64,000 nucleotides of DNA, from NCBI GenBank assembly GCA_044892505.1, contig CM097883.1, forward strand, positions 93,868,001 to 93,932,000, written 5' to 3'. Source of the stretch: Schmidtea nova (lineage: Eukaryota). The first letter of the stretch is position 1. Every line of letters starts with the position of its first letter. The notes beneath the pieces were generated by a model. The model made no database searches. It had not been told where the DNA came from and saw nothing but the letters and a program-made list of their open reading frames with translations. Below are positions 31,007 through 57,087 of the stretch, one piece after another. The translations under genes were made by a program, and so were the position numbers.

Positions 31007-31024
31007 TGGGGGCTCAGCCGGGAT
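31007..31024 (+). other. Primer-binding site, tRNA-Pro type
   Basis: TGGGGGCTCAGCCGGGAT, 16/18 identical to the canonical MLV tRNA-Pro PBS TGGGGGCTCGTCCGGGAT; 6 nt after the LTR end. Confidence 0.85.
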
Positions 31025-38500: not shown

Positions 38501-39005
38501 CTACTATGTAGCAGGACGGATTACGGGAGGAGAAGGATATTGTCAAGGAGAAACCTACCCGATGTTCGGAACACTCGCAACCAACTTAGTGGTGATGGAT
38601 ACGTATATAGTCGAACTAAAAAGCTATGAAGCATTCTTCGAACCAACAACGGGAGAAATGAAAACGTTATCCATGTGTAAAATCGACAGGAGCATGTGTC
38701 AAACGGGAATGTCAACATTAGTATACAAACCAAAGGTGAACGAATGTCAATTACAACTGCTACAAGGAGCACAGTTCGACGAAATTCAAGGAAAAACGTT
38801 CCAGGAAGAAGACGATGACGACAAAGCTAGAGCAAAGCATCTCAAGGAAGCTTTGGAGAATAAAAGACAACTGAAACCAGATCAGCGAGAAAAAAGGATA
38901 GAGATGAGAGCCACACCAACAGTGTTGATAACCACAAATCAGGATGTGGGAATGAGATTCATAAAAGGGAAAGCAACCCTTAAGTGTAGTACAACGGTAT
39001 ACTAA
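32568..39005 (+). CDS. gag: Gag - accessory domains - N-terminal part of envelope glycoprotein polyprotein (first in-frame ATG at 33126)
   Basis: Gag capsid-like EPFNGDASKLETFLKEF...; three CX2CX4HX4C knuckles (33837-33989); ubiquitin-like segments; PRGRPK AT-hook; Bcl-2-like helical domain ending NKGGWETF; internal signal peptide (38076-38141) followed by the FEVFDC glycoprotein start. Confidence 0.9.
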   Translation: MRKGAKIVVVKPTEKKVGSNINKKDKTSTTTKTVKKQKAGKDNNKNPQGSKARKIIRDKSIIENDKLSVVSNSSSNKENQAEPKENQTSEIEIDETNSDNIKEIEPEIEQEGEIDETNNDNIEEVENEVEPEAEINESDNESIISDNEIIRETESDSSSSETEDEHNNELETRGNESKITQDSGIEMGEPREEIKDKFSGEPFNGDASKLETFLKEFGIFVEVCKWKAETTVSRIQLYLKDSALDLYLEAKNSTNPPANWTAIKDFFQQTFGINKVLSEAFIEFSMRKQKMNESNAVYASELKKLAKSVFKDGGPINEELMAAIFIGGLRRPDIRAQVGCQGCKTIDQALETANRFELHMIGSEGRIYLAMDTAQTEPEVNLNNHIPNSQQLNRPPPQRRNEGNKVQNFGNQNNYNPQGQTRQCKTCGKLGHWQQECYQNLNCGKCGVKGHSESRCSTIICFNCGRPGHYSRNCGQKSNQRGNWQSNGNRQNYGNQTNTVNRQDYGNQQVNNNNSQNKTTTKEIHLMQEVQRLTELINNTTRGNPQTNQQQISMMRKIESENERLNRESQARHAQEWARIQREDEQKQQERERQPLRINMLRATNQTDTREKETTLEMNSIDPNPADNESRKETVQKDEEVEKEIKKEGETEINQEERREIWKRGMMVIMPNKSVFRFQYNVKEEVGILFNKVNQMVPGVTKLPREAFLQIEGAPKVRLELTDIWENLGVVETKRNVMIIKEIEPEEIPPPIRHETRIRRIFEGKMIRRRLKEIDELGKKMKKVEVIEDKNEQTPEISKNKTKPTENIQGETNQTAHINMLRNTTREFSDEEEDSDISSLAGDILNESEDENKEREVIKTSEPIQIKVDEIQKLLDNSLEVIYNEEFMDKKQYRKFMKALLQMNYKEWLQDREVDMLNRYVGKLIEEPLLNYTISIIINTSTSRIWIKTPFTDDIYRWVEDRLGSSYKNKFIFSQNRLVKKRTHLVETGIWPGEITLLSICDEKEEENLQEVAKEANTCFERRIKPRLEYEKERVLRKNLNSLIEQIIPQVKKHRKELMRSEYEKLKRCIECIRDTSHTRWSQISHDKLIAKMGKTMFRQGKITDLKISVELPNEDTKEIEVVADCTIKELINVINETLVQREPEDEWEDDIIIQYNEHVLWDHDERRLYKIGIWDNHQTIHVIRMDDTPRETAKDEKRERERRKEVVRKLQQIVEIYRNWRIWPEWENVLEELNLNRRIRTPVEKQWNEKGKCWEPKEGEYEEEYERGMEDDCEPEMRRVCMVTRKATPIDLDGPETAAIWLEKEKQKTEEFVEILKTNAHGKRKVIKGLADFFVVNGEDITCLRKVAKAIAEYKRVNEWCPEQLDHVIRKWRNQEFSQEIPQKVHLRIIYPNKDKEEFWVGIAEKIRDIKKKLRYEPPFHLQHQGRTLDNSLEIGITPAQLDLMNTLTVEAIAGQPLKRKEENHKPHGSISTPSPMKSVLTPGTSSRRSETTPRGNRERTPPQPYDVDEILTDSDDMIEELTELTKEKDGNIFERIQELPTTIQVTNTGETEVEQEIIIEEVNDLTEDEIRGVNVENVQLTQEMERWLEERANEPRDVTEETGRATRFVETGTGMDRRPRGRPKTDPANIVIRNKDEKRQDQWELCLRKLNKIAEIKEKETTPICQGEEWISKTIMEILAIIDPELRKYWRITEISEKAKSLHSAIAPILPEFIKEKTKSNHLDWQGTTMLIKKLTEGAETDNKYVIAIAYTIYNLLTLSRGRPKPTALERHIKNTAKIIAREIEPYVINKGGWETFIKTNQKKTQAKNMKKKFEKILEELEKEQTGTGNAKSSMNLSSIIMMMLIWMISTDSATAFEVFDCDQMKLGEKYSLRGTEQCKDATPVELQKIKKEQWYHVYQEAELIKTMVNECKVQKTRFAFYCGRGHYSAIVMPGTEREPIVLQGEDCEALFKHGEVTTRDKIKIRGKPGMMLQQTYYVAGRITGGEGYCQGETYPMFGTLATNLVVMDTYIVELKSYEAFFEPTTGEMKTLSMCKIDRSMCQTGMSTLVYKPKVNECQLQLLQGAQFDEIQGKTFQEEDDDDKARAKHLKEALENKRQLKPDQREKRIEMRATPTVLITTNQDVGMRFIKGKATLKCSTTVY

Positions 39006-40460
39006 ACGAATTATCCAGGAATATATGTGTCAAAACAAGAAGTGCCAAATGCGAAACCCAAAATCGACACAATGGATATCAAACTATACCTGTATGTGAA
39101 TAATAAAATGGATTTCCTATTCCATAGAGGACAAGCCTCATTACAAAAAGTGTACTACGATCTGATAAACAATGATTGTATACTGAATCGAGAAATATTA
39201 AAGACAAAGTTGGCCGTAGCGATTACGAATCCAGATAGCGCGATGCCATTATTACCACTGAGAGAAGGACATTTCGGAAGAGTGGTTGGAGAAGCCATGT
39301 ATGTATACATTTGTGAAAAGACACACGCGCCGCTAGCAGCAACAACGCAATTGAAACCTGGAACCTGTACAAATGAGTTAGAAATCGATTATAAAGGAAA
39401 AGTACGATACGTTCAACCGGTGACGAGAATCATCAATCCACCAGGGTTTGAACCAAATCCATTCAACTGTAGTAATGCGTACGGACCGCTTTATCAGAAA
39501 CCAGATGGTAAATGGGTTATGTTCCCAGGAAGATCCGAAGTGATAGCACCAAGAGAATTCGAGCTAATGCAGTTGTCAAAGGATAGGCAATTCAGCGACG
39601 TAGATGTCTCAAACAACGGAATATATAGTCCAAAGGATTTAGAAGCAGCAAGGCAGAATATATTATTCCCTGCGAGAAGAGAAGCATTACTGTCGAATAT
39701 CGTAACGATAACGGGAGGAACGGATTATCGAGAAGGACCGAATTATGAACTATTGTTGTCACCAGCACATTTCAAGAAAGCCACAGAAAATATGATGAAA
39801 GCAATGTGGGGAAGATTTCTGATATTCGGACAAATGATGGCCGGAATACTGGGGGTCATATTAATAATCCAAATCGTCAGAGTGATAATAACGCAAATGC
39901 TCGCGTGTTTTGACATCTACAAGAGAGAAAAGAAAGTGAATTGGAAAATGGTAGTAGGGTTTTTACCATTCCTCGCGAAGACGATGGTGTTGCATGGACA
40001 CTCAAAGGACATACATCGAATAAAGAGATTGTTGAAGATACTCGCAAAAATGAAGGGAACAGATGAAGAAGTAGGACGAAAATTTAAAAAGATAATGAAT
40101 GACGAACAAGCAAGACAACAGCTCAAGAGAGAAAGAAAAGGTTTATGGGAGAGGATGAAAGGATATAAAACCCAAAATGATTCGAGTGACGACGATGATG
40201 ACGATGACGACTATAAGGGAGGACAAGTCTATAAGAACCAAGCACCCCAATACATTGAAAAGAATCCAGCCGACGCGTGGAAATGTTACGCACCTCCACC
40301 AACCATGTATCAAGAACCACTACAAGGAGGAAGAACGACAACAATGCAAATGATGCCAATGACAAATGTATACCCCATGATACCAGAAGATTATAAAATG
40401 AGAAGATGTAGAAGCGTAGATCCACAAGGAGATACACACACGATCGCAGTAATGTCATAA
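39006..40460 (+). CDS. env: C-terminal half of chuvirus-like (gB-type, class III) envelope glycoprotein, in frame after a single TAA
   Basis: LYVNNKMDFL...YYDLINNDCILNREIL, GRVVGEAMYVYIC, CTNELEI...VQPVTRII, TM FLIFGQMMAGILGVILII and a cytoplasmic tail; the frame is continuous from 39006. Confidence 0.85.
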   Translation, partial: TNYPGIYVSKQEVPNAKPKIDTMDIKLYLYVNNKMDFLFHRGQASLQKVYYDLINNDCILNREILKTKLAVAITNPDSAMPLLPLREGHFGRVVGEAMYVYICEKTHAPLAATTQLKPGTCTNELEIDYKGKVRYVQPVTRIINPPGFEPNPFNCSNAYGPLYQKPDGKWVMFPGRSEVIAPREFELMQLSKDRQFSDVDVSNNGIYSPKDLEAARQNILFPARREALLSNIVTITGGTDYREGPNYELLLSPAHFKKATENMMKAMWGRFLIFGQMMAGILGVILIIQIVRVIITQMLACFDIYKREKKVNWKMVVGFLPFLAKTMVLHGHSKDIHRIKRLLKILAKMKGTDEEVGRKFKKIMNDEQARQQLKRERKGLWERMKGYKTQNDSSDDDDDDDDYKGGQVYKNQAPQYIEKNPADAWKCYAPPPTMYQEPLQGGRTTTMQMMPMTNVYPMIPEDYKMRRCRSVDPQGDTHTIAVMS

Positions 40461-40517
40461 AACACAGGTCCAGTATTAACCACGACAATAGAGATTAACG
40501 GAAGAGAAATCGAAGCA

Positions 40518-43500
40518 ATGATCGACACTGGAGCAAATATTTCCGCCATCGATATCAAATGGATACCACAAGAGCAAAGACGGGAAATAGAAAGGACAAA
40601 CGTCCATGTAATTGCATGTAGCAAAGAAGTTGTAGAAGTAGCAGGAAGATGGTGGGTAAAAATACGCCATTTAAATACAGAAATCGATACGTACGTAGCA
40701 GTCATACCAGCATTAAGCGTACCTTGCATTATCGGAACAGATTTGATGCCAGCGTTATTTAAAGAAATCGTAATCGATCTCGGAACAATGAGATTAAAAG
40801 ATCGCACCGGACAAATATGCGCAATAGAAGCCAAAGTGACAAGCTCAAAGCAAATGATAATACCCGCAAGAAAGGAAAAAATATGTTACGTAAAAATAGA
40901 TCCGACAATCCAAGGCGATATGATTTTCGAACCAAGTAAGAGATTCGAGAAAAGAAAAGCGTTGCCAATGGCAAGAGGACTAGTCAACATAAACGATAAT
41001 GGGGAAATCCCAATAAACGTAGTAAATTTCGACGAGGAGGATAAAATAATCTACGAAAACGAAAGACTAGGTAAACTAACCCCAATGATGGATATCGAAA
41101 TACCAATAGAAGGGGCAGAGAAAGATAAAGAACCAACCTGGAATATTGATAGTGAATTATTAAATGAGGACCAAAAGAAGCAGCTAGAAAAACTTCTGAT
41201 AGAGTATAAGGACATATTTGCAGCATCCGATTTAGATCTAGGAACATGTGATGTCACACTACATACGATACCATTAACAGATGACACACCAATTGCATTA
41301 AGGCCGTACAAATTAGCAGAAGCACAGAAAGCAGTAGCAGAAGCAGAAGTGAAGAAAATGTTGGATGCGGAAGTAATCGAACCAAGTTGCTCACCCTGGC
41401 AATTTCCAGTGGTAATGGTAAAGAAGAAAGACGGAACACAGAGATTCTGCATAGATTATCGAAGGTTGAATACGGTAACAAAACGAGACACTTACCCATT
41501 ACCGGACATCAACGAAATGCTACTAACACTACAAGGAGCAGCATATTTTACGTCGTTAGATCTAAAAAGCGGATATTGGCAAATAAAAATGAAGGAAGAA
41601 GATAAAGAGAAAACTGCCTTTACCATCGGTAGAGACCTATATCAATTTCGAAAGATGCCATTTGGATTAACGAACGCACCAGCATCATTTCAGAGATGCA
41701 TGAATTTCGTCACCCATGGAATAAAGCAGTGTATGGTCTACATAGACGACTTATTAATTTATTCTAGCACGTTTGAACAACACATACAAGATATTCGAGA
41801 TGTATTCGTTAGACTTAGACAATGGAAGTTAAAACTCAAGCCATCCAAGTGTGATTGGGCGAAAGAAAAGGTTACATTTTTAGGACATATAGTGTCAGCA
41901 AAAGGAAAAGAACCGGATCCTAGAAATATCGACAAAGTAAAAGAATGCCCAGTACCAAAAACAATAACCCAAATACAAGAATTTCTCGGACTATGTGGAT
42001 ATTATAGAAAGTTTATAAAAGATTACGCCGGAATAGCAAAACCTATACAAGAGCTGGTAAAGAAAGATGTATCATTCATATGGGGAGACGAACAGCAAAC
42101 AGCTTTCGAGACATTAAGAGATAAACTGATAACCGCACCCATATTGGTACACCCAGACTTCAAGAAGCCATTCCTACTTGCAACGGATGCAAGCGGATAT
42201 GCAGCAGGAGCAGTATTAGGACAATACGATGATGAAGGAAAAGAACGGGTAATCGGATATTATAGCCGGACATTCAAAAAGCATGAGAAAAACTACTCAG
42301 TAACCGAGCGAGAAGCATTAGCGATTATATTAGCGATTAAACATTTTAAATATTTATTATGGGGACACATCATCTGCATAACAACAGATCACCAACCGCT
42401 TGTATGGTTAGGACAGCATAAGGAAACATCCAGTAGATTAATGCGATGGGCAATGCAGTTACAGGAGTACTCACCAGACATAAAATTTAAATCAGGAAGA
42501 GCGAATGCGAATGCAGACTGTATGTCAAGACTGACATTCCCGGAATTAACCGACCCGGATGTACAACGAATTTGCGTATTAATAGCAGAAGATTTGGATT
42601 TTAGTGAATTAAAGAAAGATCAGCAGGAAGACAAAGAATTAGGACAGATCATAGAATTCCTAACATCTCGAAACATGGAAGTATTCAAAGAGAACAAGGA
42701 ATTAAAGGAACATATAGGAAAATATCAACATCGCTACATAATAAATAAAGGATGGTTGTTAATACAAGACGGGGAAAAGAGATTGATGTGCTTACCGGAA
42801 AACAGAAGGAAAGAGATAATGATCCAATACCATGATGGGAAATTAGGAGGGCATATGTCCGAGAAAAAGACAATAAATCGTATGAGACAAAAATATTATT
42901 GGCGAACAATGGAAGAAGATATCAAAGGATGGATTAAAAATTGTCTAACTTGCGCAACCGGAAAGGATAGTGGGAAGAAATGGAAAAACCTACTACAACC
43001 AATGCCGATACCAGCAGAGCCAATGACAACTATAGCAATGGACGTAATAGGGCCATTACCAGAAAGTCTAAACGGAAATATTTATATATTGGTAATAACG
43101 GATTACCTGACAAAATTCCCGGAAGCATTTGCCATGCAAGATCAAAAAGCAAAAACCGTAGCAAAAATTTTGGTAGAAGAAATATGTTGCAGATACGGAA
43201 CTCCAAAACAAATACTCACAGACCAAGGAACTAACTTTATGAGTGAGTTATTAGACGAGGTGACAAACTATTTCAGAATAGCAAAATTGAGTACTTCACC
43301 ATATCACCCACACACGAATGGACAAACAGAGAGATTCAACGGCACATTGATTAGAATGTTATCCAACTATGTCAGCAGACACCAAACTGATTGGGACGAA
43401 TACATAAAATTATGTTTAATGGCATACCGAATGTCGATACATGCAGCAACAAAACTAAGCCCGTTTCAACTTATGTATGGAAGAGAATGCAACATGCCCA

Positions 43501-46478
43501 TAGATTTAGAGTATCAACCACCATTATCGCAATATATGGAAGACGACGACTACGTAACCAAATTCAAAGAAAGAATGCAGGAAATATGGAAAACGGCAGA
43601 ACTCAACATTAAATTTTATCAGGAAAGTTATAAGGATTTACACGACCAGAAGAAAAATGTTAAAGCAAACGACCTAAAACCAGGAGATTGGGTGATAATA
43701 GAAACTCCCGAAATAATACCAGGAACGGTTAAGAAACTCCAAAGACCTGGAAGAGGACCTTATGAAATTATATACAAAAAGGACAATAATGTCAAAGTTA
43801 AGCTAGTAAATCGACCGTTAATACGATCCATATATGTAAACACATGCAGATGTAAGAAAGTGCCTAAAACAATAACTACAACACCAGAAAATCGAATAAT
43901 AACCAGATCACAAACAGCCAGGATAAATATGCTCAGAGCAAACACAACCGAAGACGACAAAGCAGAAACAAGGCATAAGGAAATCAGAAATAAAGAAATC
44001 GTATTGAAAGCAAGAGAGGTAATGGGAAGATGGCATGCCAGAGACGAAGCAAACATATTAAAAGATATACGATGGATAATTAGCGACTACGCACAAGGAC
44101 TACCAACGAAACCAATTATTTCTGAGTTGTTAGGAAAAATCCCTGAAATACTTTTATTAGAGGATGTAGGGGGACAACCCGCCTTACACAATGCGGTAAA
44201 GTGTGGAAACATAGAAAGAGCAACGGAATTCCTAAAAATTGCAAAAGAAACCAATCAACACCTAGGTTTCGGGAATCGCGAACAAGAAACCCCACTAATG
44301 ATAGCGGCAATTTACCAAGCAAACAAGGAAATGATAGACCTTTTGATAAAGGCCCGTTTCAACTGGACAGAACGAGATAGGGAAGATAAAACAGTCTTAA
44401 ATCACGTAATATGGAGTTCACACCAACTAATGCTGAAACATATAATCGCAAACGCCACATGGGAAATAGACGAATTAATAAAAGGAGACATTATCAAAGA
44501 AGCAATCAAAATTGGTAAGTGCAACACGATCCGTAAGTTAATCAAATGGAAACGACCAGAAGATGATACATGGGTTTTAGACATAAACGAAGTATACAGC
44601 GAAGGACAAAACGCACTGTTAAGATACCTTGTGAAATTTACTTGCGATCAAAAGACATTACTAACCTTATTAGACAGAGGAAACATAAACATCACAAAGA
44701 ATGAAGAAGAACACAAATTCGATAAAGAAAAAGGGGCCTTATTCAACAAGATTAGGAAATGGTGTGCGAAACCACTTGATAAACTAATAACATACAAAGA
44801 CATAAACAATTTTAACGAGAAATACCAGACGATAGTAAATGAGTATGATGAACTAGTAAAAATCCTAAACCACCCCGAAAAATGCAAACAGGTTTTGGAG
44901 AAAAAAGAAAGAGAAAGTAACAAGAAACTCACACCACTCTTCAAAGCAGAAGCACCATACCAAGCTAGACTAGATGCGATACAAGAAAAAGCAAAAGAAT
45001 TGTTACCGGAATTCGAGAATAGTAAACATGCACTGGAAATACTCGGCGCATTAGTTGAAAAAGTACACGCATACGCAAAAGGAACATACAATAGTAACGA
45101 CATAACGACTATAAAAAAGGAGATGCCAGTAACATTTTTACTACCAAAGGACGGAATAATGCCCATACATAGAGCTTTACGAAATGGCAAAGATAGAAAA
45201 GTAATGGAAATCGCAAGAGTAATGTTAAATTGCGGAAGCAACATGAATATGATAGACGAGAAAGGAGATACACTTATGGTATTTGCAGCAAGGGCTAAAA
45301 CGAAAACAAAGGTGTTGGAAGAACTATACAAAGCAGGTGCAGGACTTACAGGAAAGACAGATAAAGATAATTCAATTTTGGATGTAGCATTACTAACACA
45401 TAATTGGGAAATGGTCAACTTCATTAAAACAATCGCAAATCAGGAAGAAATAGATTACCTAACTGATACGGTTAAGAAACCCAGTGTACTAACAATGATG
45501 CATAATGTCGAACTAACAGAAGCAATACTTACGTGGATAAATCCGAATACTAACGAACCAGCATTCAGGATTAATGAGTTTACAGAACATAACCAAAACT
45601 GGTGTATAAGAAGTGCCTTAATAACGTATAAATGGCCAGAGATATTGAAGATGTTTATGGAAAGAAAGGATATAAGAATCACAAACAATCCGAAAGAAGA
45701 GAAATACACAGGCAAATGGAAAGAATTAATGAAGACATACATCAACAACTGGATCAAGGCCAAAAAGGAAATTGTGGAATATAAATCCACCAACAAAGTA
45801 ATACCGGAGCACTTAGAAACACAAGAATTTGAGGCAAGTAATCTAACGACATTAGCATATGCAAAATTGATAGAAGAAATCAATGTCGAGGACGACATTT
45901 TCAACGAGCCAGGGGGAGATGACAATACAGATAGTGACGACGGTAACAACTCAGAAAATTCAAACGATCACGAACCACCCGATAAAGAGGAAAACGAGAA
46001 AAAAGACAAGAAACGAGTCAAAGAAGAAAAGAAAAATGAAGACGAAAAACAAAGAAATGAAGAGGGAGAACAAAGAGACCAAGGAATTAAAAATGACACC
46101 CAAAGAACAGGTTATAAATCAACCATAAAACCATTCTTCAAACCAGAATTACTATTATTAACAGTGATTTTAACGTTAATTAACCCAAGTCAAGGAATGA
46201 CATGTGAAGAAAGGGCAATAATACAAATAAAAAACGCAAAAGGAATCGAACGAGTATGTTGGTCGAAAAAGGACAAAATCACGGAACAAAATAGCCCGAT
46301 GGATTGCAGAATCTCAAAACACGAGCAAGAGATCATAGAGATCAATGACTTAGATCTAAATACCTGGTACAAAATATGCACCGTTAGAAAACAAAAGCAT
46401 CCAAGATCACACAACACAATCGCATGTGCAAAATACCAAACACCTAAAGCAGCCATGACAATACAACAGTCACCCTAA
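40518..46478 (+). CDS. pol: Pol polyprotein (PR-RT-RNase H-IN) extended by ankyrin repeats and a signal peptide/FN3-like module; frame open from 40461
   Basis: IDTGANISAI protease; CIDYRRLN, MPFGLTNAP and YIDD (41739-41750) RT; TDASG...TDHQPL RNase H; HHCC, TDQGTNF, TERFN and GPY integrase; GQPALHNAV, ETPLMIAA, GIMPIHRAL and GDTLMVFAA ankyrin motifs. Confidence 0.95.
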   Translation: MIDTGANISAIDIKWIPQEQRREIERTNVHVIACSKEVVEVAGRWWVKIRHLNTEIDTYVAVIPALSVPCIIGTDLMPALFKEIVIDLGTMRLKDRTGQICAIEAKVTSSKQMIIPARKEKICYVKIDPTIQGDMIFEPSKRFEKRKALPMARGLVNINDNGEIPINVVNFDEEDKIIYENERLGKLTPMMDIEIPIEGAEKDKEPTWNIDSELLNEDQKKQLEKLLIEYKDIFAASDLDLGTCDVTLHTIPLTDDTPIALRPYKLAEAQKAVAEAEVKKMLDAEVIEPSCSPWQFPVVMVKKKDGTQRFCIDYRRLNTVTKRDTYPLPDINEMLLTLQGAAYFTSLDLKSGYWQIKMKEEDKEKTAFTIGRDLYQFRKMPFGLTNAPASFQRCMNFVTHGIKQCMVYIDDLLIYSSTFEQHIQDIRDVFVRLRQWKLKLKPSKCDWAKEKVTFLGHIVSAKGKEPDPRNIDKVKECPVPKTITQIQEFLGLCGYYRKFIKDYAGIAKPIQELVKKDVSFIWGDEQQTAFETLRDKLITAPILVHPDFKKPFLLATDASGYAAGAVLGQYDDEGKERVIGYYSRTFKKHEKNYSVTEREALAIILAIKHFKYLLWGHIICITTDHQPLVWLGQHKETSSRLMRWAMQLQEYSPDIKFKSGRANANADCMSRLTFPELTDPDVQRICVLIAEDLDFSELKKDQQEDKELGQIIEFLTSRNMEVFKENKELKEHIGKYQHRYIINKGWLLIQDGEKRLMCLPENRRKEIMIQYHDGKLGGHMSEKKTINRMRQKYYWRTMEEDIKGWIKNCLTCATGKDSGKKWKNLLQPMPIPAEPMTTIAMDVIGPLPESLNGNIYILVITDYLTKFPEAFAMQDQKAKTVAKILVEEICCRYGTPKQILTDQGTNFMSELLDEVTNYFRIAKLSTSPYHPHTNGQTERFNGTLIRMLSNYVSRHQTDWDEYIKLCLMAYRMSIHAATKLSPFQLMYGRECNMPIDLEYQPPLSQYMEDDDYVTKFKERMQEIWKTAELNIKFYQESYKDLHDQKKNVKANDLKPGDWVIIETPEIIPGTVKKLQRPGRGPYEIIYKKDNNVKVKLVNRPLIRSIYVNTCRCKKVPKTITTTPENRIITRSQTARINMLRANTTEDDKAETRHKEIRNKEIVLKAREVMGRWHARDEANILKDIRWIISDYAQGLPTKPIISELLGKIPEILLLEDVGGQPALHNAVKCGNIERATEFLKIAKETNQHLGFGNREQETPLMIAAIYQANKEMIDLLIKARFNWTERDREDKTVLNHVIWSSHQLMLKHIIANATWEIDELIKGDIIKEAIKIGKCNTIRKLIKWKRPEDDTWVLDINEVYSEGQNALLRYLVKFTCDQKTLLTLLDRGNINITKNEEEHKFDKEKGALFNKIRKWCAKPLDKLITYKDINNFNEKYQTIVNEYDELVKILNHPEKCKQVLEKKERESNKKLTPLFKAEAPYQARLDAIQEKAKELLPEFENSKHALEILGALVEKVHAYAKGTYNSNDITTIKKEMPVTFLLPKDGIMPIHRALRNGKDRKVMEIARVMLNCGSNMNMIDEKGDTLMVFAARAKTKTKVLEELYKAGAGLTGKTDKDNSILDVALLTHNWEMVNFIKTIANQEEIDYLTDTVKKPSVLTMMHNVELTEAILTWINPNTNEPAFRINEFTEHNQNWCIRSALITYKWPEILKMFMERKDIRITNNPKEEKYTGKWKELMKTYINNWIKAKKEIVEYKSTNKVIPEHLETQEFEASNLTTLAYAKLIEEINVEDDIFNEPGGDDNTDSDDGNNSENSNDHEPPDKEENEKKDKKRVKEEKKNEDEKQRNEEGEQRDQGIKNDTQRTGYKSTIKPFFKPELLLLTVILTLINPSQGMTCEERAIIQIKNAKGIERVCWSKKDKITEQNSPMDCRISKHEQEIIEINDLDLNTWYKICTVRKQKHPRSHNTIACAKYQTPKAAMTIQQSP

Positions 46479-46628
46479 GGAGATTACATCATCGGAAAAT
46501 GTGGAAGAACAGAGACACAGGAAACAGAAAACAAAAAATCCCAGGCAGCAGATAAGCAAACAACACCAACCCTACGAATTACAATAGAGAGGCCCGAAAC
46601 AAGAGTTGCCACAAACGAAACCGAAAGA

Positions 46629-49607
46629 GTGTCTTACCAAATGGAAGTGTTATGTTTAGCACTCATACTAATAATAATAAAACGACTAGAGGAAGGGACG
46701 GAAATCGAAACTATGACAATAACAGAAGTTGAAGATACACAGAATACTAACATAAAATGTTGGGCGAGGAATAACGAGGAAATCGGCGTAAATGAAATAA
46801 GGAAAAGTCGAAAACCAACAACAAGTAAAGTAATTAAAGTATCCGAAGTAAGAGCAGACAAAATGTACAAACTATGCCTACTAGAAAAAGAGAGAAACAA
46901 GAAAGGTACCACAAAAATTAAAACATTCCAAACTGGAGAAGTAATAAAGTTCAGAAGGAGAACGAGGAGGAGAAATAAACAAATCAAGCAGAAAGTAAAC
47001 ATAACATTAGAAATAAAAGAGATAGAACCAAACGTGAAAGGAGTATGCTGGAGGAAGTACGAAAAGAAAACAAATAAAAGAATGACACCACAATGCCGAA
47101 CAAGCACAGGAGCAACGACGATTCAAATAAAAGGTTTAGAAAGTAAACAAACCTACGAAATATGTTTGGTAAAGAAAAATGATCAGATAACGATAAACGA
47201 CCTAGAATGCGGAATACATACAACTTCATCCGGAACAAGAACCAAAACGTTAACACGGAAAAATAAAAGGAAACAACGAAACAAAGGAAAACCGAAGTAC
47301 ACCACTACCTTTAAAAACAATAAACAACCAATAAGCCAGGAAGTTACGACAAAACCCGAGAGAAAGACATCAGCAACTCTAACATTATGGAAAATAGAGA
47401 ATAAAACATTGGAAATATGTTGGATAATAGTCCAGAAACATATAAGAAGACAATCAAGAGAGTGCAGAAAAACAAATAAAGAAATCAGGATCGAAAAACT
47501 ACAATTTAATAGCGAGTATGAAGTATGTACAATAGAAAAAATGGACGCACTAGGAAACCAACAAGAAAGATGCGAAACCTACTATACACCAGCAAACGCG
47601 ACATCAAAAGGAGTAGCAAGGAAACTCGAATTCAAGGAACTAAGCCAAACGAATGAACAAATGGACGCAGAAAAAATAATAACCGATCCTCAAGCAAAAT
47701 GGACACCTGAAGAAGTTATCAAAGAAGTCAAAAGAAAGCAAGAGGAACGGGAACAATTAAGGAGAAAACTAAAAGGACAATATGGAATAATGTTCAACCA
47801 AAGCGAATCTATACCAACAGACGAGAATAAGGAAATTAAAGAACTAATTGGCTTAGGAATTTTAACAGCGACCATACCAGTAATAATCGCGTTATCAGCT
47901 ATATGGATACGCAAGATAAATCCCAGAAAATCAACAACCAAATGGCCAAATATAGACAGTACAAGCCACGGAGTTGAAATACTAGAAGAAAAAGCAAGAG
48001 AAGAACCAAAACCGACCAGGAATAAGAAAGAAGCAAAAATCGCAAAACTAGGAATGAACAACAAAGACAAGGAAATAAAAGAGATTAAAGGAGAAGAGAA
48101 AAAATATGAAAGGCGAACCAGAAGCCTACCGCAGAGTTCAAAATGGTTGGGTCTAACAATAATATTGACATTAATCAATAGGGAAGAAGCAACAAACCTA
48201 CAAGCAGGGATAAAAATAGTAAATGTCCAGGAGGTCGAGAAAATATGCTGGAATAGAGAGGATGAACCAATTGGGAAAGATAACCCACTAAAATGCATAA
48301 TCAGAAAATCCGACCAGGATATAGTACGAATAGAAGGGATGGATAGAGGAATCATGCATCGAATATGCATAATAGGAAAGGAAAGGAAGTCGGGGCTACC
48401 TAAGACAGTCGTATGCCAAAAATACGAAACGCCTAGACTTGAATGGTATAGAGTAAAACCAACAAAGAAAGAAATCAAAAACACAATAGATCAACCAGCA
48501 ACTCAGATAAGAAACACAACGGATAAACCAGGAGAAGGGGAGAGAAGCACCAATAACACGAGAGAAAGAATATCACCCCAACAAGAGTGCGTATGCATAG
48601 CATTAATAATAGCAATGTCCAAACGTTTTGACAGAGGAATAATAATAGAACAAATGGCCATAACAATAAGAAAAACAAGCAGCAACAAACTATGCTGGGG
48701 AACATACAACGAACCAAGGAAGGAATACCAAGTTCAGACAAGCGACGAATCACGAACAAACAAGGAAATCGAAATACAAGAAATACAAATGAACGAAGAA
48801 GGAAGTATATGTATATGGGAGAAAGGAACCCAAGAGGATCAACCCGGAATAGAGCATTGCAAGACATTCCAAAAAGGAGAGACACTGAACTTCGACGAAG
48901 AAGGGTTAACCAAGACAGAAAGAACTCTGACATTAACAGGACTCGATCAGACAGTTAAAGGAATATGTTGGACAAAGTACAACCCAGAAGTGGAAGAAGA
49001 CAACCTAACCCACTGTAAAGAAATAAAGAATAAAGAAAAAGTCGAATTAAAGAAAATCGAAGTAAATAGGACATACGCGATATGTACCTTCACCAGAAAA
49101 GGTTCAGAAAAACCAGAATGCGGATTATATCAGATCTCAGAGAAACTACAACAACAGATCGAACCAGGAAACGTGGAAAACCGAACAAAAGAAAATAACG
49201 TCAAACAACTACTAAACCGCCATTGGTCTACACAAGAAGTAATGAACCAAGTCAAGAGTCAAGTGCAGAAGGAGAAGAGGCCAGAGGCTCAAACGCAAAA
49301 TGAGATAAAAGTAAATCGGAATAAAAACAAAGAAACAAACATGGGAAAAGCAGTAATAGGATTGATCAGTATGGGAATATTAATAGCGTATGGAATACTG
49401 ACTACCAGCATGATAGTATACTGGAAATACAGGAAGAGAAACAAAGCGACAGCCATACAATGGCCAGATATCAAAATTATGAAACAAGGAATAGAAATAC
49501 CAGAAGAAATACAGAAAGAATTTCAAAGAAGAACGAAAGGTAAAGAATTCTGGAAACAAATAGAAGATGAAGAAAGATACGACAGAAGGACAATAATGAA
49601 TGTATAG
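46629..49607 (+). CDS. Multi-pass membrane protein with repeated Cys-containing FN3-like modules (first ATG 46641; in frame with pol)
   Basis: Six modules with CW and I..L.....Y.IC-like motifs, signal/TM segments, and internal duplication of a cassette. Confidence 0.8.
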   Translation: MSYQMEVLCLALILIIIKRLEEGTEIETMTITEVEDTQNTNIKCWARNNEEIGVNEIRKSRKPTTSKVIKVSEVRADKMYKLCLLEKERNKKGTTKIKTFQTGEVIKFRRRTRRRNKQIKQKVNITLEIKEIEPNVKGVCWRKYEKKTNKRMTPQCRTSTGATTIQIKGLESKQTYEICLVKKNDQITINDLECGIHTTSSGTRTKTLTRKNKRKQRNKGKPKYTTTFKNNKQPISQEVTTKPERKTSATLTLWKIENKTLEICWIIVQKHIRRQSRECRKTNKEIRIEKLQFNSEYEVCTIEKMDALGNQQERCETYYTPANATSKGVARKLEFKELSQTNEQMDAEKIITDPQAKWTPEEVIKEVKRKQEEREQLRRKLKGQYGIMFNQSESIPTDENKEIKELIGLGILTATIPVIIALSAIWIRKINPRKSTTKWPNIDSTSHGVEILEEKAREEPKPTRNKKEAKIAKLGMNNKDKEIKEIKGEEKKYERRTRSLPQSSKWLGLTIILTLINREEATNLQAGIKIVNVQEVEKICWNREDEPIGKDNPLKCIIRKSDQDIVRIEGMDRGIMHRICIIGKERKSGLPKTVVCQKYETPRLEWYRVKPTKKEIKNTIDQPATQIRNTTDKPGEGERSTNNTRERISPQQECVCIALIIAMSKRFDRGIIIEQMAITIRKTSSNKLCWGTYNEPRKEYQVQTSDESRTNKEIEIQEIQMNEEGSICIWEKGTQEDQPGIEHCKTFQKGETLNFDEEGLTKTERTLTLTGLDQTVKGICWTKYNPEVEEDNLTHCKEIKNKEKVELKKIEVNRTYAICTFTRKGSEKPECGLYQISEKLQQQIEPGNVENRTKENNVKQLLNRHWSTQEVMNQVKSQVQKEKRPEAQTQNEIKVNRNKNKETNMGKAVIGLISMGILIAYGILTTSMIVYWKYRKRNKATAIQWPDIKIMKQGIEIPEEIQKEFQRRTKGKEFWKQIEDEERYDRRTIMNV

Positions 49608-49732: not shown

Positions 49733-50089
49733 ATGACCGAACAGGACGAAACAACTGAAATAACTATGGCTATGAGATGGAAAGCGCAATGCGATTTATT
49801 AGTACGAACAGTCAACTCATTACAGAACCAATTAGCAGAAAAACAAATGTTACTATCAGAAAGCTATAACAATTGTTTCGAACAATTACACAGAATAGAG
49901 GAACAACAAAGAGCGATAACTGAACTCACCAGAGAAAATCAAACGATAAGCAACACCAATCAAAGACAAGCAATAGAAATAAACCATTTAACACGAGGAG
50001 AAAGAGAAGGATCCGAAGAAGGATGGATGAGTTGGGTAATAAATAGATTAAACAACGAAGCGGAACCAGATTCAACGAATGAGCCATAG
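49733..50089 (+). CDS. Small coiled-coil protein, unknown function
   Basis: ATG ORF preceded by TAGAAA; heptad pattern. Confidence 0.65.
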   Translation: MTEQDETTEITMAMRWKAQCDLLVRTVNSLQNQLAEKQMLLSESYNNCFEQLHRIEEQQRAITELTRENQTISNTNQRQAIEINHLTRGEREGSEEGWMSWVINRLNNEAEPDSTNEP

Positions 50090-50181
50090 ATAAATAAAGC
50101 GGAAAACTGTAAATATGTAAAAATAAAAACAAGAAAAACCAAAAATAAATGACAGGTCGAATGTATATATTATTGTAGAAA

Positions 50182-51558
50182 ATGGACCGAGATGAACGAG
50201 TAATCGAAATCTTGAGATTAGAAAACAGAAAATGGAGCAAGAGGCTCACATGCGGAAAATGTAATAATTTACTACGAGAACCCAGACAAACGATATGTGG
50301 ATGTAGAATATGTACAAAATGTATACAAGAATTAGTTGCAACAGGAATAACAACATGCCCAGAATGTAAGGAAGGAAGAATAGTGTTGAACGAAACCAGA
50401 ACGGACAAAGCAACCCAGAGAGAAATTATGAGCACCATAACGAAGTGCGTAAATACACCTTGTACATGGCAAGGACAAATAAGTAATCTAGGAAATCATA
50501 TGGAAAAGTGCGAGGAGAAAAGAGCCGAATGCGAGAAGTGCCAACAGACAATAATTCTAAAGAAGAGAGAACAACACAAGGACGAATGTAAAGAAGAAGA
50601 AATCGCATGCGAGTATTGTGAAACTCGAGAAACGAGGAGAAAAATCGAAGAAGAACACTTGAATATAACAGAGGAGAAAGTATGCGGACAATATGTAAGC
50701 AAATGTCCAAACAATTGTGGAATAACAGAAGAAATAAAGTTACATGAACATTGGAAAGTATGTACCGAAAGGCCAAGAGAATGCCCATATAACAAGCAGG
50801 GATGCAAGGAGAAGCGAACGCGGCAAACAATGAAACAGCATCTAGAAGAAGCAGCATTAATGCATGTGGAGATGACAAACGAAGCGGCAAAAGAAACGGA
50901 ACAGACAATCCAGAAACTGGAAAAGGAAGTAGAATCACATAAAATAATGATGAGTTTACTACTAGAAACAAGAGAGCAGTTTGAACTAACTCGCGAAAGA
51001 ATGGAAGAAAAAATAATAGCCATAGAAGAATTGGGAAAAGGAATGAAAATACAATATAATCAATTAATACGAGAAATTGACGAAAGAAGGGACTTACCAA
51101 TCGCACCTTACCTATGGAAAATAACAGATTTTAGAGACAAACTAGCAGAAGCCAGAAATATGACGAAAACAGCAGTAATAAGCCCACCATTTTATTTATG
51201 GAAAAATGGGGTTAAAATAAGATTAAAGGTATACCCAAATGGAGACGGAAGAGGACAAGGAACACACGTGTCAATATTTTTCTCGTTATGTAAAGGAGAA
51301 TACGATGACCTAATAGAATGGCCCTTAAAAGTAGGAGTCATTATAAGAATCAAAAGTATAGGAAAACCAGTGGAAAAGTTCTTTGAAACAGACAAACATA
51401 CGAGTACAAGTGAAAAACCAACAACAGAATGCGGACTAGCAGCAGGAGAACCAATGTTTATAAGGAAAGAAAACCTATGGGAGCGACTATATGCAGACAC
51501 ACTATACATAGAGATGGAGAGGCATGAGAAAACGGATAGAAAAGGATGGTTGGCGTAA
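50182..51558 (+). CDS. Intronless TRAF-family protein (RING - TRAF zinc fingers - coiled coil - MATH)
   Basis: LTCGKCNNLLREPRQTICGCRICTKC...CPEC RING; multiple CX2-3C/H zinc fingers; MATH YLWKITDF...SPPFY...KVYPNGDGRGQGTHVSIFFSLCKGEYDDLIEWP. Confidence 0.93.
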   Translation: MDRDERVIEILRLENRKWSKRLTCGKCNNLLREPRQTICGCRICTKCIQELVATGITTCPECKEGRIVLNETRTDKATQREIMSTITKCVNTPCTWQGQISNLGNHMEKCEEKRAECEKCQQTIILKKREQHKDECKEEEIACEYCETRETRRKIEEEHLNITEEKVCGQYVSKCPNNCGITEEIKLHEHWKVCTERPRECPYNKQGCKEKRTRQTMKQHLEEAALMHVEMTNEAAKETEQTIQKLEKEVESHKIMMSLLLETREQFELTRERMEEKIIAIEELGKGMKIQYNQLIREIDERRDLPIAPYLWKITDFRDKLAEARNMTKTAVISPPFYLWKNGVKIRLKVYPNGDGRGQGTHVSIFFSLCKGEYDDLIEWPLKVGVIIRIKSIGKPVEKFFETDKHTSTSEKPTTECGLAAGEPMFIRKENLWERLYADTLYIEMERHEKTDRKGWLA

Positions 51559-51671
51559 TGAAGGAAGTAACCATGTAAATAAACTGTATAGAACAATATG
51601 AATTAACAAATAATCAAAAACAATAAAAATAAAAAAATGATTAAATATTCTTTTTATCTGTAATTATAGAA

Positions 51672-52568
51672 ATGGGAAATATAGAAGTAACCTTACAAGA
51701 AGTAACCGTACATCAAGACGAAATGATCAGAAATCACATGGAGCGGATTGGGATATGGATTCATGCCTATTATCGAAAACAGGAGGAATTGGAAAGACAA
51801 ACCCAAGCACTAAGAGAAGCCGAGAAAACGAATCAAAGAAGTCGAGAAAAAATAGAAGAAGTCTACAAACTGCTAAGACAACAAAACGAATACTACAAAG
51901 AGATGATGAAAGAGCGACGAGAGGATAGGGATAGACAACAGATAAAAACAGACCATAAGATTCAGTCAATCACAGAACAAGCAAGATATTGGAAAAAAGA
52001 GGCAAAAGACTCTTACAAGGAAGCAAGGGAGATAATAGAACAAACAGCGTACAGCGATGATTGGAAACTGTTTAAAGAGATCGATGAATTAAAAGAAGAA
52101 TTAGGGAAAAAGATCAGTCAGGAAGCGTCAAATAAAGTATGGAGTAAGAAAAGACAACAATTCATTAGGGAACAAGCCAAGAAAATCAAAGAATTAACTT
52201 ATCAAGTACAAAGAATGGGAGAAGATTTAGCCAATCAAGAACAATTAAAAGGTATGCTGACCGGAATGTGGAATCACAAGGAAGAAAACATGAAAAGAGA
52301 CATAAATGGATATCAAGGAGTGATTACCCAGAAGAAAATAGAATTAAAAAGAACTAAAGAAAGACTGGAAGAAACGAGGCAGAGTTATGAAGAGAACATA
52401 ACCAATTTGACAAAAGAAAACGAAGAACTGAGGAAAAAGCTGACAGAAAAACCAATACCAGCAAAGGAAACAAGTATTACAGCAGCAGTAACGGAAATGA
52501 TGGAGAAAGAAGAGAGAGAGAAAAGATTAATGGAACTAGAAAGACAAATTGAAACCCTAACAGAGTAG
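51672..52568 (+). CDS. Long coiled-coil protein, unknown function
   Basis: 298 aa rich in E/K/Q/R with heptads; preceded by TAGAA-ATG. Confidence 0.7.
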   Translation: MGNIEVTLQEVTVHQDEMIRNHMERIGIWIHAYYRKQEELERQTQALREAEKTNQRSREKIEEVYKLLRQQNEYYKEMMKERREDRDRQQIKTDHKIQSITEQARYWKKEAKDSYKEAREIIEQTAYSDDWKLFKEIDELKEELGKKISQEASNKVWSKKRQQFIREQAKKIKELTYQVQRMGEDLANQEQLKGMLTGMWNHKEENMKRDINGYQGVITQKKIELKRTKERLEETRQSYEENITNLTKENEELRKKLTEKPIPAKETSITAAVTEMMEKEEREKRLMELERQIETLTE

Positions 52569-52812: not shown

Positions 52813-53373
52813 ATGAGAAAGCTCGCAATACCAATACTCCTATGGTTAATAACCATCACCCTACAGAGAGAAGATCTACAACTTACCGAAACCCAATTAC
52901 GAGTCCTACCCGACAAAACCTACCAAAAAGTAGACAGCCTAATCGAGGAAGTAATTAAAGAAATCAACGAATTCCGACAGAAATATCCCCACAATCAAGA
53001 TCATCAAATCCAACAAATCTTAGATAACCAACAACTGAAACTAAAAGAAACCCGAAAAACCCTGAAAGAAGGTAGAGAGCCCATAAAAAGCCTAGCCCAA
53101 GCTGAAATAGAATATCAAGAGAAATGGATCATAGCAATCATCATAATCCTTTCAATCAGCGTAACTATCATTGCAATCACAATCCTGATTGCCTCCTACC
53201 GGATAAAAATCCTCAAACAGAAACAAACCATCGTCAATCAAACATCAAGGCGAGACAACCGAACCCAAAGACGTATGAGAAACCATCTAGATCGAATTCA
53301 GACCCACTACGAATTAGCTACAAGCAATGAGAGAACTCAAACCCAACCCAATGCGAGCCGGAGGATCGAATAG
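52813..53373 (+). CDS. Small type I membrane protein (signal peptide, helical ectodomain, TM, basic tail)
   Basis: N-terminal MRKLAIPILLWLITITL; TM WIIAIIIILSISVTIIAITILIA; preceded by TAGAAA-ATG. Confidence 0.7.
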   Translation: MRKLAIPILLWLITITLQREDLQLTETQLRVLPDKTYQKVDSLIEEVIKEINEFRQKYPHNQDHQIQQILDNQQLKLKETRKTLKEGREPIKSLAQAEIEYQEKWIIAIIIILSISVTIIAITILIASYRIKILKQKQTIVNQTSRRDNRTQRRMRNHLDRIQTHYELATSNERTQTQPNASRRIE

Positions 53374-53591: not shown

Positions 53592-54881
53592 TGTTGGGCC
53601 CACCAATTGGTCTAAAAAGACAAAAATATTGTACTAATTTAAACAATAAATACAAATAATAACCACAAAAACATTCAAAAAACCTAAATTAAAAATCAAA
53701 ATAAAATAATAAATAATAATTACTAAATTTCCAGCAAAGGAAGAAAATCAAATTGACACGGGAACGAGCAGTATGGGGGTCTGAAATAAGAAAATTACAA
53801 ATAAAATCAAATAAAAGTACAATTAATTGGTTAATTACTTGAAAAAATCGGGACCACCCAGCGACAAATCTGAACCGGAAATTTAAAATGGTTTATATTA
53901 AAATAAAATAACAAAATTACTTTGATGGACGGCCTGATCCTGATTGGTCAATCTGACCAACTGGATCAGTATAAATACCGATCCAAAAATCATACAGATA
54001 ACACCTAAAATCTTAGCTACCGAACTGATCTATAACAGTCAGTTACATCAACTTTGATACGACAAATATTGTGTAAAATTTCGGAAAACGCTACATCTTG
54101 GATTTAAAGAGTAAATTTTGTTGTATTGTATTTGAACTAATTTTATGATATGTTTTACATGATTCCCATTTATTTCATTTCATTTAATATAATTTATTAC
54201 TATTAATTGCTCTATTTTCTTATGCCATTATTTTATGATATGATAAATATACTTCCTCAGTAGCTCACGCTGCGAGGGAGCAAGCCGTAAATGTGGGATT
54301 TCACCGTTCCACAAGATGGTGAGCAGAGTTTTATTGGTATTTTTATTTAATTTTTAACTTTACGGTAGAGTTGTGCAGGGACAAGGACACGGGTAAAATT
54401 AGTAGACAGTGTTTAACATTAATTAATTAACATTCAATCAGACAGGAGAGAATAAACTACAGTACTAATTATCATGTCAACTAAGTCGATTTCGCATATG
54501 CACACGATTTTTTTTGAATCCACATAGCTGATCAAAATAATGTCCGGACACACCGAGACGATTTCGACATTTCAACGATAGTTTCAATTAAGATATAAAT
54601 AACAACATAATCAGATCGACACTACTGATTGAATAAGTAAAACCGTAACCTGATCGCTGTAAATAGCGCAGGTGATAATATGTAAATTTTCAATAAACGT
54701 ATCCCGATCGCTGTATATAGTGACGGTGTTAATTGAATAGCTTAGAAAATTATTTTTTTTGTTCCTCCTTTTCATATTTTTTTTTGTTTTGTTGATCAAC
54801 GAGAGGAACACATTTCATCAGGTCTTACCAAAATTTGGGGATTAGTCACAGTAAATTTTATTAGCATTATTATTCTCTCAG

Positions 54882-55382
54882 ATGAAATCAACGATACTGG
54901 ATGAATTTCTAACAACTCAACGTCATGTGGCACGGGTCGAAAATCCTCTAATCCGGACGCAACGGAAGAAATTGAAGTCGCTTCCACAGGAACTTCTCAG
55001 AACGCTAAATGCGTTAATGTATAAATGGAGACGGGAACTAGGAAAGAAATGTCCGTTTTCGATTTGGGCCGGTGGATTAGATACCATCATATATCGTGGA
55101 GGCCCCGGATGGGAAATTCAGGACAAAAGAGACCGGGAGACGACAGCTCCATTCATCATAGTGGTGACAGACCGCGAAGGAAATCCAACGACAGTGATCC
55201 ATTGGGGATATGTCTCACCGCTCAAGTTGCTTCACTTTGGGTTGATTCCGAACCACTTACCGAAAACGTGCCATGGACGCCCCAAACTAAACTGTTCGAT
55301 GGCTCACATCCGACGAGATCCAGTCAATCACGGGTTGCATATTACCCCCGTTCACGGCCTCAAGCGAAGCGTTTTCCACTAA
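54882..55382 (+). CDS. LTR-ORF1 (3' LTR copy)
   Basis: Translation identical to 29238-29738. Confidence 0.5.
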   Translation: MKSTILDEFLTTQRHVARVENPLIRTQRKKLKSLPQELLRTLNALMYKWRRELGKKCPFSIWAGGLDTIIYRGGPGWEIQDKRDRETTAPFIIVVTDREGNPTTVIHWGYVSPLKLLHFGLIPNHLPKTCHGRPKLNCSMAHIRRDPVNHGLHITPVHGLKRSVFH

Positions 55383-55548
55383 ACATTATATTCACATTTG
55401 TATGAACTAAACTATTTCCATAAATTAAATGGTATTGATCTGTGTTTTGCCTGTTCTTAGTTAAATTTATTTCTATTTATTTAATCATATAATTTTTACA
55501 CTCGACGGATAATATTAATCGTTGGTAACATAATGGCTGCATCATAAA

Positions 55549-56157
55549 ATGGGTTTGTTATTTAGTATGACGGAAACTAGCCAACAGCGAGAATTGGATA
55601 AGGCGTGGAGAATCCGCCGAGCCTTAGAAAAGGAGCTAAATCAGGAAAAAGCATTACGAGCCAAGGCAGAAGCTCAGATTCAGTATTTACGGACCAGCTG
55701 GTTCGCCCCAGCCCGTATGAAGGAGCAGATGAGTCGGACAGAAAGGGCTCAAAAGACAGCTGACGATTATCGCACCGAATGGGAAGCAACAAAAATTGAG
55801 TTGCGCCGATGTCTCCATTCGGTGACGACTTCATTTATCGAGTCCGAATTGAAAGCACAAATCCGACCTATCACCTACCAGAAATGGGTAGGAGAACAGA
55901 AAGTGGCCTGCTCGGTCAGTACGGACACCGATGGGCTCGAGGCAACAACAGTGCAGAGTCGGGTGGAAACCACCACTGTACTAAACCCCGTCGAAAAAAC
56001 GAACAAGCGAAAACGAATCGGCTCCAAGCGCCGTCGCCAAAGAAAGCTGTTTTCTCAACAGTTGCAGACACAAGTAACCCCTATGGCAGAAATGTCGGAA
56101 GCCGAGTGGTTATCCGAGATATTCCCTCCTGAAGGAATTTTCAAAGAATTTCTGTAG
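55549..56157 (+). CDS. LTR-ORF2 (3' LTR copy)
   Basis: Translation identical to 29905-30513. Confidence 0.7.
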   Translation: MGLLFSMTETSQQRELDKAWRIRRALEKELNQEKALRAKAEAQIQYLRTSWFAPARMKEQMSRTERAQKTADDYRTEWEATKIELRRCLHSVTTSFIESELKAQIRPITYQKWVGEQKVACSVSTDTDGLEATTVQSRVETTTVLNPVEKTNKRKRIGSKRRRQRKLFSQQLQTQVTPMAEMSEAEWLSEIFPPEGIFKEFL

Positions 56158-57087
56158 CAGATAGAATCATAATATGATGTCAGATTTTGGAGTTAATTAA
56201 ATCTTTGCTCGTTTTTTTTTGTGTTGTTGATTCCTAGGTATTTCTTTCGATTACATAATTCATATAATTAAATTTAAATTACACGTCACACAAACGAAAG
56301 GAGTAGCGATAAAGGATTTAAATATTATCAAATTTGTAGTTTCGTTTTGCTTATTTTTTTTTGTTTTTATGGTAAATACATAGCCTCACACGCACGAAAT
56401 AGAACAATAATTGCGTAAGTCCTTCTACGGCCGCGTGAACCCGTAAACATAAAGGGGGAGTAGTCCTAGCAATAGTGCTCACCTGCCCCTCATTGTTTAA
56501 CCACCCTGCGCATCACCAACTTGGTTATCAAGGGAAATAATCAAGGGCGCTCGAGTGTAGCTTACGATTATTTATGCATGATCATGGATGGGAGATCCCT
56601 GGCAATCATTAGAATGTTTACTACACCGTCCATGAACCCAGCAATTTACTAAATAATAATAATTTAAATGATAATATTTAAAAAAAATTACAATTATTTC
56701 CAATTGTTCTTTCATCTTGATTCGCCATGTTGTTGTTGGAAATATTTGTTCCTATAAAACAAAATAATAAAAAAAAAATTATAAATTTACTCATAATTCG
56801 AGATCCGTTAAAGATACCATTTTGAAAATTGTTGTACATATTTTTTTTTAATATTAGAAAATTTTAAGATTTGAAAATTTTTGTAAAAGTGAATAAAAAA
56901 TGAGAGTATAGACTATATAAAGGAGGTTTTATTAACCGTCCAATCAGAGACGAGATAACTACATGTTTATATATGTGTGCATCGTTTTCACACCGAGTAT
57001 GTATGTTAAAAATCACTCACCAAGTATGTCTTTGTAAAGTCTGCCTGATGCATGTTCGATGCAATATAATAAAGCCACTAAGTGACT

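Follow-up and report, generated by a model that had tools for sequence, protein, structure and literature searches.

Burro-like retroelements in the genome of Schmidtea nova carry a full-length TRAF gene that purifying selection has kept in four element families and that is likely expressed from a spliced RNA of its own; the reading towards which we lean, from sequence comparison, is that the product is a signalling adaptor that joins host TRAF/receptor complexes and, as long as the element is active, biases the cell towards survival. The gene lies in a stretch of 64,000 nucleotides (the window, to which all plain positions refer) and encodes 458 aa with zero internal stops in the ORF reading of the window. 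Its predicted parts are:

50182..51558, + strand: TRAF gene, a single frame from the ATG at 50182 to the TAA ending at 51558
50251..50367, + strand: RING (aa 24-62), with eight Cys ligands, Cys41 replacing His
50446..50865, + strand: five TRAF-type zinc fingers (aa 89-228), 20 ligands conserved across all four families
50854..51090, + strand: coiled coil, a helix predicted by AlphaFold2 at aa 225-303
51109..51516, + strand: MATH/TRAF-C domain (aa 310-445), from Pfam, PDB and Foldseek

Sequence and model comparisons confirmed that the predicted product is of TRAF2/3/5 type, with a RING, five zinc fingers, a coiled coil and a MATH domain, as an initial annotation had proposed for a gene inside a retroelement, and the gene indeed sits between LTRs. 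Pfam matched MATH_2 at residues 310-445 (4e-21) and zf-TRAF at 166-220 (1e-8), with a weak match to TRAF3_RING at 24-62 (0.008); a PDB sequence search led from the MATH part to the MATH domains of TRAF3/5/2/1 (3e-23) and from the N-terminal part to the RING-zinc-finger regions of TRAF6/5/2. The AlphaFold2 model (mean pLDDT 93, from a 37-row alignment) shows five hairpin-helix fingers, the one helix 225-303 and a beta-sandwich, and its best Foldseek matches are TRAF3, TRAF1, TRAF2 and TRAF5 (2e-16). The RING reads C-G-C where TRAF2, TRAF3, TRAF5 and TRAF6 have C-G-H; its eight Cys are present in 27/27 family-A copies and in all four families, and, of the 29 Cys/His in residues 1-231, 28 are common to all four families, all 28 zinc ligands among them.

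The element bearing this gene is Burro-like, env-bearing, LTR-bounded and 28.7 kb long, with a 4-bp target duplication, ATTT, flanking both ends. Outside the TRAF region it comprises:

27947..31000, + strand: 5' LTR, 3054 bp, TG...CA
29238-29738 and 29905-30513, + strand: two ORFs per LTR, of 166 aa and 202 aa (ORF list), repeated in the 3' LTR
31007..31024, + strand: primer-binding-site-like stretch, its sequence identical in family B
31340..31843, + strand: 167-aa ORF with a C-terminal C3HC4_3 RING and no BIR match
33126..49607, + strand: polyprotein in one reading frame (ORF list, Pfam), broken here by three stops
53592..56643, + strand: 3' LTR (LTR pair comparison)

The primer-binding-site-like stretch at 31007..31024 presumably has a likeness to tRNA-Pro, and a search of the 64-kb window for tRNA genes found none; the 167-aa RING ORF we take to resemble the IAP type. 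The first LTR ORF (29238-29738) has an acceptor-like CAG immediately ahead of its ATG and two TGTAHATA motifs upstream. Along the polyprotein follow gag (with a zinc knuckle), a Monjiviricetes-type fusion glycoprotein, protease, RT, RNase H, integrase, ankyrin repeats and FN3-like membrane repeats, the env between gag and protease being marked by PF24664 matches inside the gag frame (7e-19 and 4e-43 in Pfam) and the ankyrin repeats coming after the integrase. The FN3-like part (46641-49607) is built of repeated domains bearing hydrophobic segments, after which come short W-P-x-I tails; in the tails we presume a loose likeness to cytokine-receptor Box1; its atlas matches are FN3 proteins at 0.81-0.83, a lead only. 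In-frame stops interrupt the polyprotein at 39003, 40458 and 46476, and all three sites are open in 17/17 copies that cover them (the region is missing from 3 of the 20 fetched); programmed readthrough was ruled out, the stops being private to the window copy. Because its LTRs are 99.9% identical (1 mismatch and 2 gaps in 3054 bp) and the stops are private, this copy was likely made in trans from an already defective template. The TRAF of this copy is intact despite the broken polyprotein.

An A-rich strand bias runs through the whole element interior, TRAF included, in keeping with the codon style that the initial annotation had assigned to gene and element alike: third-position A is 0.55 in TRAF and 0.48-0.50 in pol and gag, against 0.26-0.37 in host-type TRAF frames, and AT skew is 0.44 in TRAF and 0.31-0.41 in pol and gag, against -0.03 to 0.18 in host-type TRAF frames.

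Downstream of the polyprotein, TRAF is the second of four same-strand ORFs, the spacers of this cassette region measuring 125, 92, 113 and 244 nt. The cassette and its putative signals, apart from TRAF itself, are:

49733..50089, + strand: 118-aa coiled-coil-like ORF, the first cassette gene, with homologues in four families (41-64%)
50108..50115, + strand: TGTAHATA motif, 19 nt past the upstream stop, in 26/26 copies
50162..50178, + strand: second TGTAHATA motif, T-rich tract and TAG, a predicted 3' splice acceptor 3 nt ahead of the TRAF ATG (acceptor in 26/26, motif in 22/26)
51574..51581, + strand: TGTAHATA motif, 16 nt past the TRAF stop, with a counterpart at +16 or +17 in each of the four families
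51672..52568, + strand: 298-aa ORF with no Pfam match, an acceptor-like site ahead of its ATG and homologues in four families
52813..53373, + strand: 186-aa ORF with hydrophobic segments and an acceptor-like site ahead of its ATG

The order small coiled-coil ORF, TRAF, long ORF is conserved in all four families. The pattern YAG-A(1-3)-ATG, defined after the sites had been seen, stands at 4/4 cassette ORFs, each with two or three A; among the 521 ATGs of the interior it occurs at 29. Around TRAF the acceptors are conserved in 26/26 family-A and 22/22 family-B copies, and the spacers differ between copies by 2.4-2.9% as against 9.2% at third codon positions. All 12 sense TGTA[ACT]ATA motifs of the element fall in spacers (8 in the five 3' spacers of 49608-53591 and 2 per LTR, for example at 29014 and 29068), none occurring in its 20,178 coding bases; shuffling predicts about 0.03 per spacer, and 4 antisense copies lie elsewhere. 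Across the four families the motif, which we take to be Pumilio-type, follows at +15 to +20 after 13 of the 17 stops read, and after TRAF in 4/4. AATAAA showed no significant enrichment in the cassette spacers. Complex retroviruses splice in cis to a leader. A comparison of families A and B found no conserved splice donor, a candidate at 30772 being rejected as not conserved in family B, and, among the joints listed for four contig runs of unrecorded kind that cover the whole window, none is GT..AG. Spliced-leader trans-splicing is known in planarians, where operons have been defined at <=300 bp in the portion of the source available (PMC12582326); the cassette has this spacing (same strand, <=300 bp apart), which is necessary and not sufficient. 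We infer that TRAF would be expressed through the acceptor at its ATG, and either cis-splicing to a leader or spliced-leader trans-splicing would fit.

That the gene is in use, and has been for a long time, follows from purifying selection, which indicates use and not which use. The main sample comprised 30 copies chosen by the DNA adjoining the gene; TRAF is present over its whole length in 30/30, unbroken in 21 and with a stop or frameshift in 9. By pairwise Nei-Gojobori on related copies (not tree-based), with 3 tandem near-duplicates removed, family-A TRAF gave a dN/dS of 0.12 (RING 0.13, fingers 0.14, coil 0.10, MATH 0.08), the coiled coil and MATH domain being its most constrained parts; an earlier value of 0.105 was replaced, its copies having been ranked by protein score. 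Measured on 20 copies of the main sample, dN/dS was 0.114 for TRAF (codon bootstrap 0.083-0.154), 0.007 for RT, 0.010 for RNase H, 0.016 for integrase, 0.046 for env, 0.108 for the ankyrin region and 0.294, the highest of any part measured, for the FN3-like repeats. Family B gave 0.10 (23 copies chosen by protein score), pairs inside C and D gave 0.21-0.23, and comparisons between families gave 0.15-0.26 at a dS of 1.2-2.3, near saturation; among copies, dS is 0.15-0.19. The comparison among copies that the initial annotation had called for thus came out at about 0.11, which excludes neutral decay.

TRAF is the cargo of element families, not a one-off. In a protein search with the family-A sequence, 92 of 3716 candidates were scored, a sample that favours intact copies, and 92/92 were full-length and 95-100% identical, 83 of them without a stop; element flanks were present at 30/30 fetched TRAF loci. 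Between the four families (A-D) TRAF identity is 44-70%. Family B, which surfaced with an oyster TRAF query, encodes a protein of 470 aa that is 52-53% identical to A and has the same neighbour genes, while the database protein P0234 as query brought up family C (69-70% identical to A) and family D (44-47% identical to A and B). Copies were counted with one 20-mer per family at <=1 mismatch, the reversed control giving 0 each time: 240 places for family A (191 with a second pattern), 140 for B, 79 for C and 13 for D, the sum of 472 being a lower bound whose genomic context was read at a minority of places. In all five copies read from families C and D, TRAF is whole although RT, RNase H and integrase are missing: aligned to pol, these copies break off near residue 112-135 and resume near 1122-1126, a pattern that detects a YxDD motif in the window and in family B detects none in them, and the deletion is in frame in at least one copy of each family. 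These RT-less families retain env and gag; family D additionally lacks the FN3-like part and gave no match to the 167-aa RING ORF within the stretches read. The deletion borders of C and D are similar, yet the two are not sisters in the TRAF tree. Among individual loci, a family-B copy at L167:6027-9938 carries an internal deletion across which the beginning of pol is joined in frame to the MATH domain of TRAF, and four near-identical family-A copies lie in tandem, about 33 kb apart, at C1:590.84-590.94 Mb.

Published accounts describe an expansion of planarian TRAF/MATH genes, on other data sets than ours: 121 domains and 99 transcripts in one (PMC6109357, consulted in part) and 282 contigs in another (PMC7586133), the available text of which contains neither transpos- nor intron. 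In this genome, a MATH profile gave 150 scored rows, of which 58 count as host-type, judged by frame length and place, and 49 of those 58 fall in a cluster at C2:405-455 Mb, from which 30 rows were fetched together with a few others; several members of the cluster have RING and MATH in two nearby frames, and some form tandem arrays. The suggestion that elements inflate TRAF counts therefore stands in part: with 472 element places against the 58 host-type rows seen, TRAF tallies taken from the genomes of such animals can consist mostly of element copies, but the expansion on the host side exists independently of them. Two further points of the initial annotation were accurate as observations and not in what they were held to signify. 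A Cys-for-His RING occurs in 16/16 distinct host-type RINGs read from this genome, in named Dendrocoelum TRAFs and in 18/137 matchable database RINGs; being common to host TRAFs, it is no mark of adaptation to the element. The single frame, too, is there, and nine host-type genes hold RING and MATH in one frame, so that lack of introns is not diagnostic of mRNA capture.

In the final tree (32 rows, LG+G4, with 6 outgroup-side rows of an earlier tree left out), in which the element rows have an unusual letter make-up, the TRAFs of the four families form one clade (100/99) inside the triclad clade (100/100), in which every subclade contains both genes of this genome and Dendrocoelum or Dugesia proteins. 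The basal fork, with the element clade nested in or sister to all host triclad TRAFs, is weakly placed, as a tree that groups all host genes is not rejected (p-AU 0.12; 0.27 in a previous test). The closest host-type genes are 26-31% identical to the element TRAFs; one host-type TRAF from this genome shares 70% identity with a protein of Dugesia japonica, which, together with the Burro-type layout of the element, makes a triclad planarian the likely host. One clade inside the triclad TRAFs at some 30% identity to the closest host genes means that the capture is old, as had been supposed, and the simplest reading is a single ancient capture with the triclad CGC-RING TRAF clade as its source, while flow in reverse, from element TRAF to host TRAFs, is possible. 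The element clade joins two database proteins (98/98), P0105 and P0122, its nearest outside relatives; these and P0234 group with the element TRAFs and share P-I-x-P before MATH, and they are possibly element-borne TRAFs of other species, metagenome scans having turned up no genomic context for P0105 and P0122.

TRAF proteins trimerise through the coiled coil and MATH domain and bind receptor tails by MATH. On the reading that we favour, TRAF mRNA would be made by splicing at the acceptor ahead of its ATG, the protein would enter host TRAF/receptor complexes as an adaptor, and the host cell would be pushed towards survival during element activity. Conservation over the whole length points to a working multi-domain adaptor, the upkeep of all RING and finger ligands is more than a receptor-blocking stub needs, and the intactness of TRAF in the RT-less families C and D was counted on the same side. 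As background, planarian TRAF-like genes regulate cell survival (PMC7586133, in the part available), and the captured IAP of Burro1 is described as protecting planarian stem cells from apoptosis (Lee et al., 2026, as reported in excerpts of PMC13465017). TRAF6 Ile72 belongs to the E2 contact according to the sections consulted of PMC5702613. At the corresponding position families A and B have Lys, C has Tyr and D has Ile, and 14/16 host RINGs have a hydrophobic residue; since the position varies by family, ligase activity may differ by family, and loss of the contact residue as a trait of all families was rejected because D keeps Ile. In the MATH groove, position 410 is S/Y/S/H in A/B/C/D against F/Y in others, and position 423 is E/E/E/N against C/S/Q. 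With such a groove, binding of host receptors is not assured, and the groove and the variable E2-contact residue together suggest that partner choice has likely shifted.

We rank an adaptor that tilts the cell towards survival ahead of a pure decoy, which is unlikely, and of a role internal to the element, which we hold to be somewhat less likely again. A decoy would occupy receptor tails, or poison host TRAF trimers or RING dimers, without signalling, and thereby weaken a response, immune or stress-related, that is aimed at the element. The Lys that the two largest families have at the E2 contact, the altered groove residues and the strongest constraint falling on coiled coil and MATH would suit a decoy, but family D keeps Ile, mammalian TRAF3 (P0035) likewise has Lys there, and no zinc ligand has been lost. 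TRAF RINGs, moreover, dimerise both with themselves and with one another, and TRAF5, though E2-poor, can still sustain activity when paired with TRAF6, as stated in the same sections of PMC5702613. The constant order of small coiled-coil ORF, TRAF and long ORF in four families, a MATH groove unlike that of host TRAFs and the retention of env and gag by RT-less families would instead accord with a TRAF that partners its own cassette coiled-coil ORFs, ankyrin/membrane proteins or Gag in assembly, trafficking or turnover and not in host signalling; against this, family D keeps TRAF without the FN3-like part or a match to the 167-aa RING ORF in the stretches read, and Burro1, in the available part of its description (PMC6431247), has nothing more of a TRAF than a MATH domain, which lies within the polyprotein.

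Selection at the level of the host, which would tolerate or exploit the elements as a dispersed, inducible source of TRAF with only indirect gain to the element, appears very improbable: the Burro1 IAP offers a precedent (PMC13465017, in excerpt) and TRAF persists where RT is lost, but a dS of 0.15-0.19 between copies with amino acids held is the pattern expected from selection during element replication, and 9/30 copies are already broken. As for a passive passenger, recently transduced host sequence without function, we give it almost no credence: identity to the closest host genes is about 30%, the families are four and diverged, dN/dS is far below 1 and the codon style is that of the element. 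The cases that would have spoken against the initial annotation, namely a TRAF unique to one copy, a near-identical host gene and neutral decay, are thereby excluded. More ambitious than the adaptor reading, and improbable, if well above host-level selection in our estimate and just below the element-internal role, is a captured signalling operon, in which the host spliced-leader machinery, guided by an acceptor and UGUAHAUA in each spacer, would cut element RNA into separate mRNAs, a working TRAF among them; the elements would then account for the majority of TRAF gene copies in the genome and fix the thresholds of stem-cell survival and of immunity, and the host single-exon TRAF clade may itself have been seeded by the retro-route.

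Burro (GYPSM1), for which >30 kb, long LTRs and one huge frame are quoted in the consulted part of PMC6431247, shares with the present element, here slightly shorter, a size of about 30 kb, long LTRs, Gag, a mononegavirus-like fusion protein between gag and protease, RT-RH-IN, ankyrin repeats and TRAF-type cargo. In that account the cargo is a MATH_TRAF_C domain inside the Schmidtea mediterranea polyprotein and, in D. tigrina, in an upstream accessory ORF whose full length is not stated; here the TRAF is complete from RING to MATH and has a gene to itself, which follows the polyprotein as part of a four-gene cassette, and the element has FN3-like repeats, RT-less sister families and no BIR match. 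Since Pfam matched neither BIR nor MATH in the polyprotein pieces or the 167-aa ORF, we file the element as Burro-like and not as Burro1, the likeness being one of described layout. The B-IAP of Burro1 (Lee et al., 2026, per the excerpts of PMC13465017) is likewise a captured host cell-death regulator on such an element, a BIR plus RING protein with function shown, whereas the TRAF is known from its sequence.

With triclad host TRAF2-like proteins (D. japonica TRAF2-like A, Dendrocoelum TRAF-2/-4/-5) the element TRAF shares the clade (100/100), the Cys-for-His RING, the domain order and, in this genome, the often single-exon structure, and from them it differs in its roughly 30% identity, A-rich codons, long stem branch, altered groove and hundreds of dispersed copies. 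Vertebrate TRAF2/3/5 (PDB 1kzz, 1ca9, 4gjh, 3knv, 7l3l) have the same fold and architecture, and the groove residues matching R/K-x-Y-x-x-G-D are kept as in them; the His-to-Cys RING and the changed serine-rich groove positions set the element TRAF apart.

A MATH domain in Burro polyproteins and one accessory ORF is already in print (PMC6431247, as far as consulted). A literature search found no description of a full-length element-borne TRAF or of the spacer motif, which does not establish absence from print, and what we did not find there is the complete TRAF gene, its selection, its four families, RT-less ones included, and the spacer grammar. With a full-length putative signalling adaptor under selection in a transposon, and in animals that serve as a tractable model group for regeneration, manipulation of host death and immune pathways by giant elements becomes testable beyond one IAP case, and the conserved spacer grammar yields a prediction of how cargo is expressed by retroelements with several genes. 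Outside the element, a second, broken gypsy-like element, pieces resembling a B-type DNA polymerase and a hAT-like transposase were picked out by eye from the ORF list, in which the following regions were read:

57844-61746, 24548-26119, 62702-63331 and 15205-17073, - strand: ORF regions outside the element
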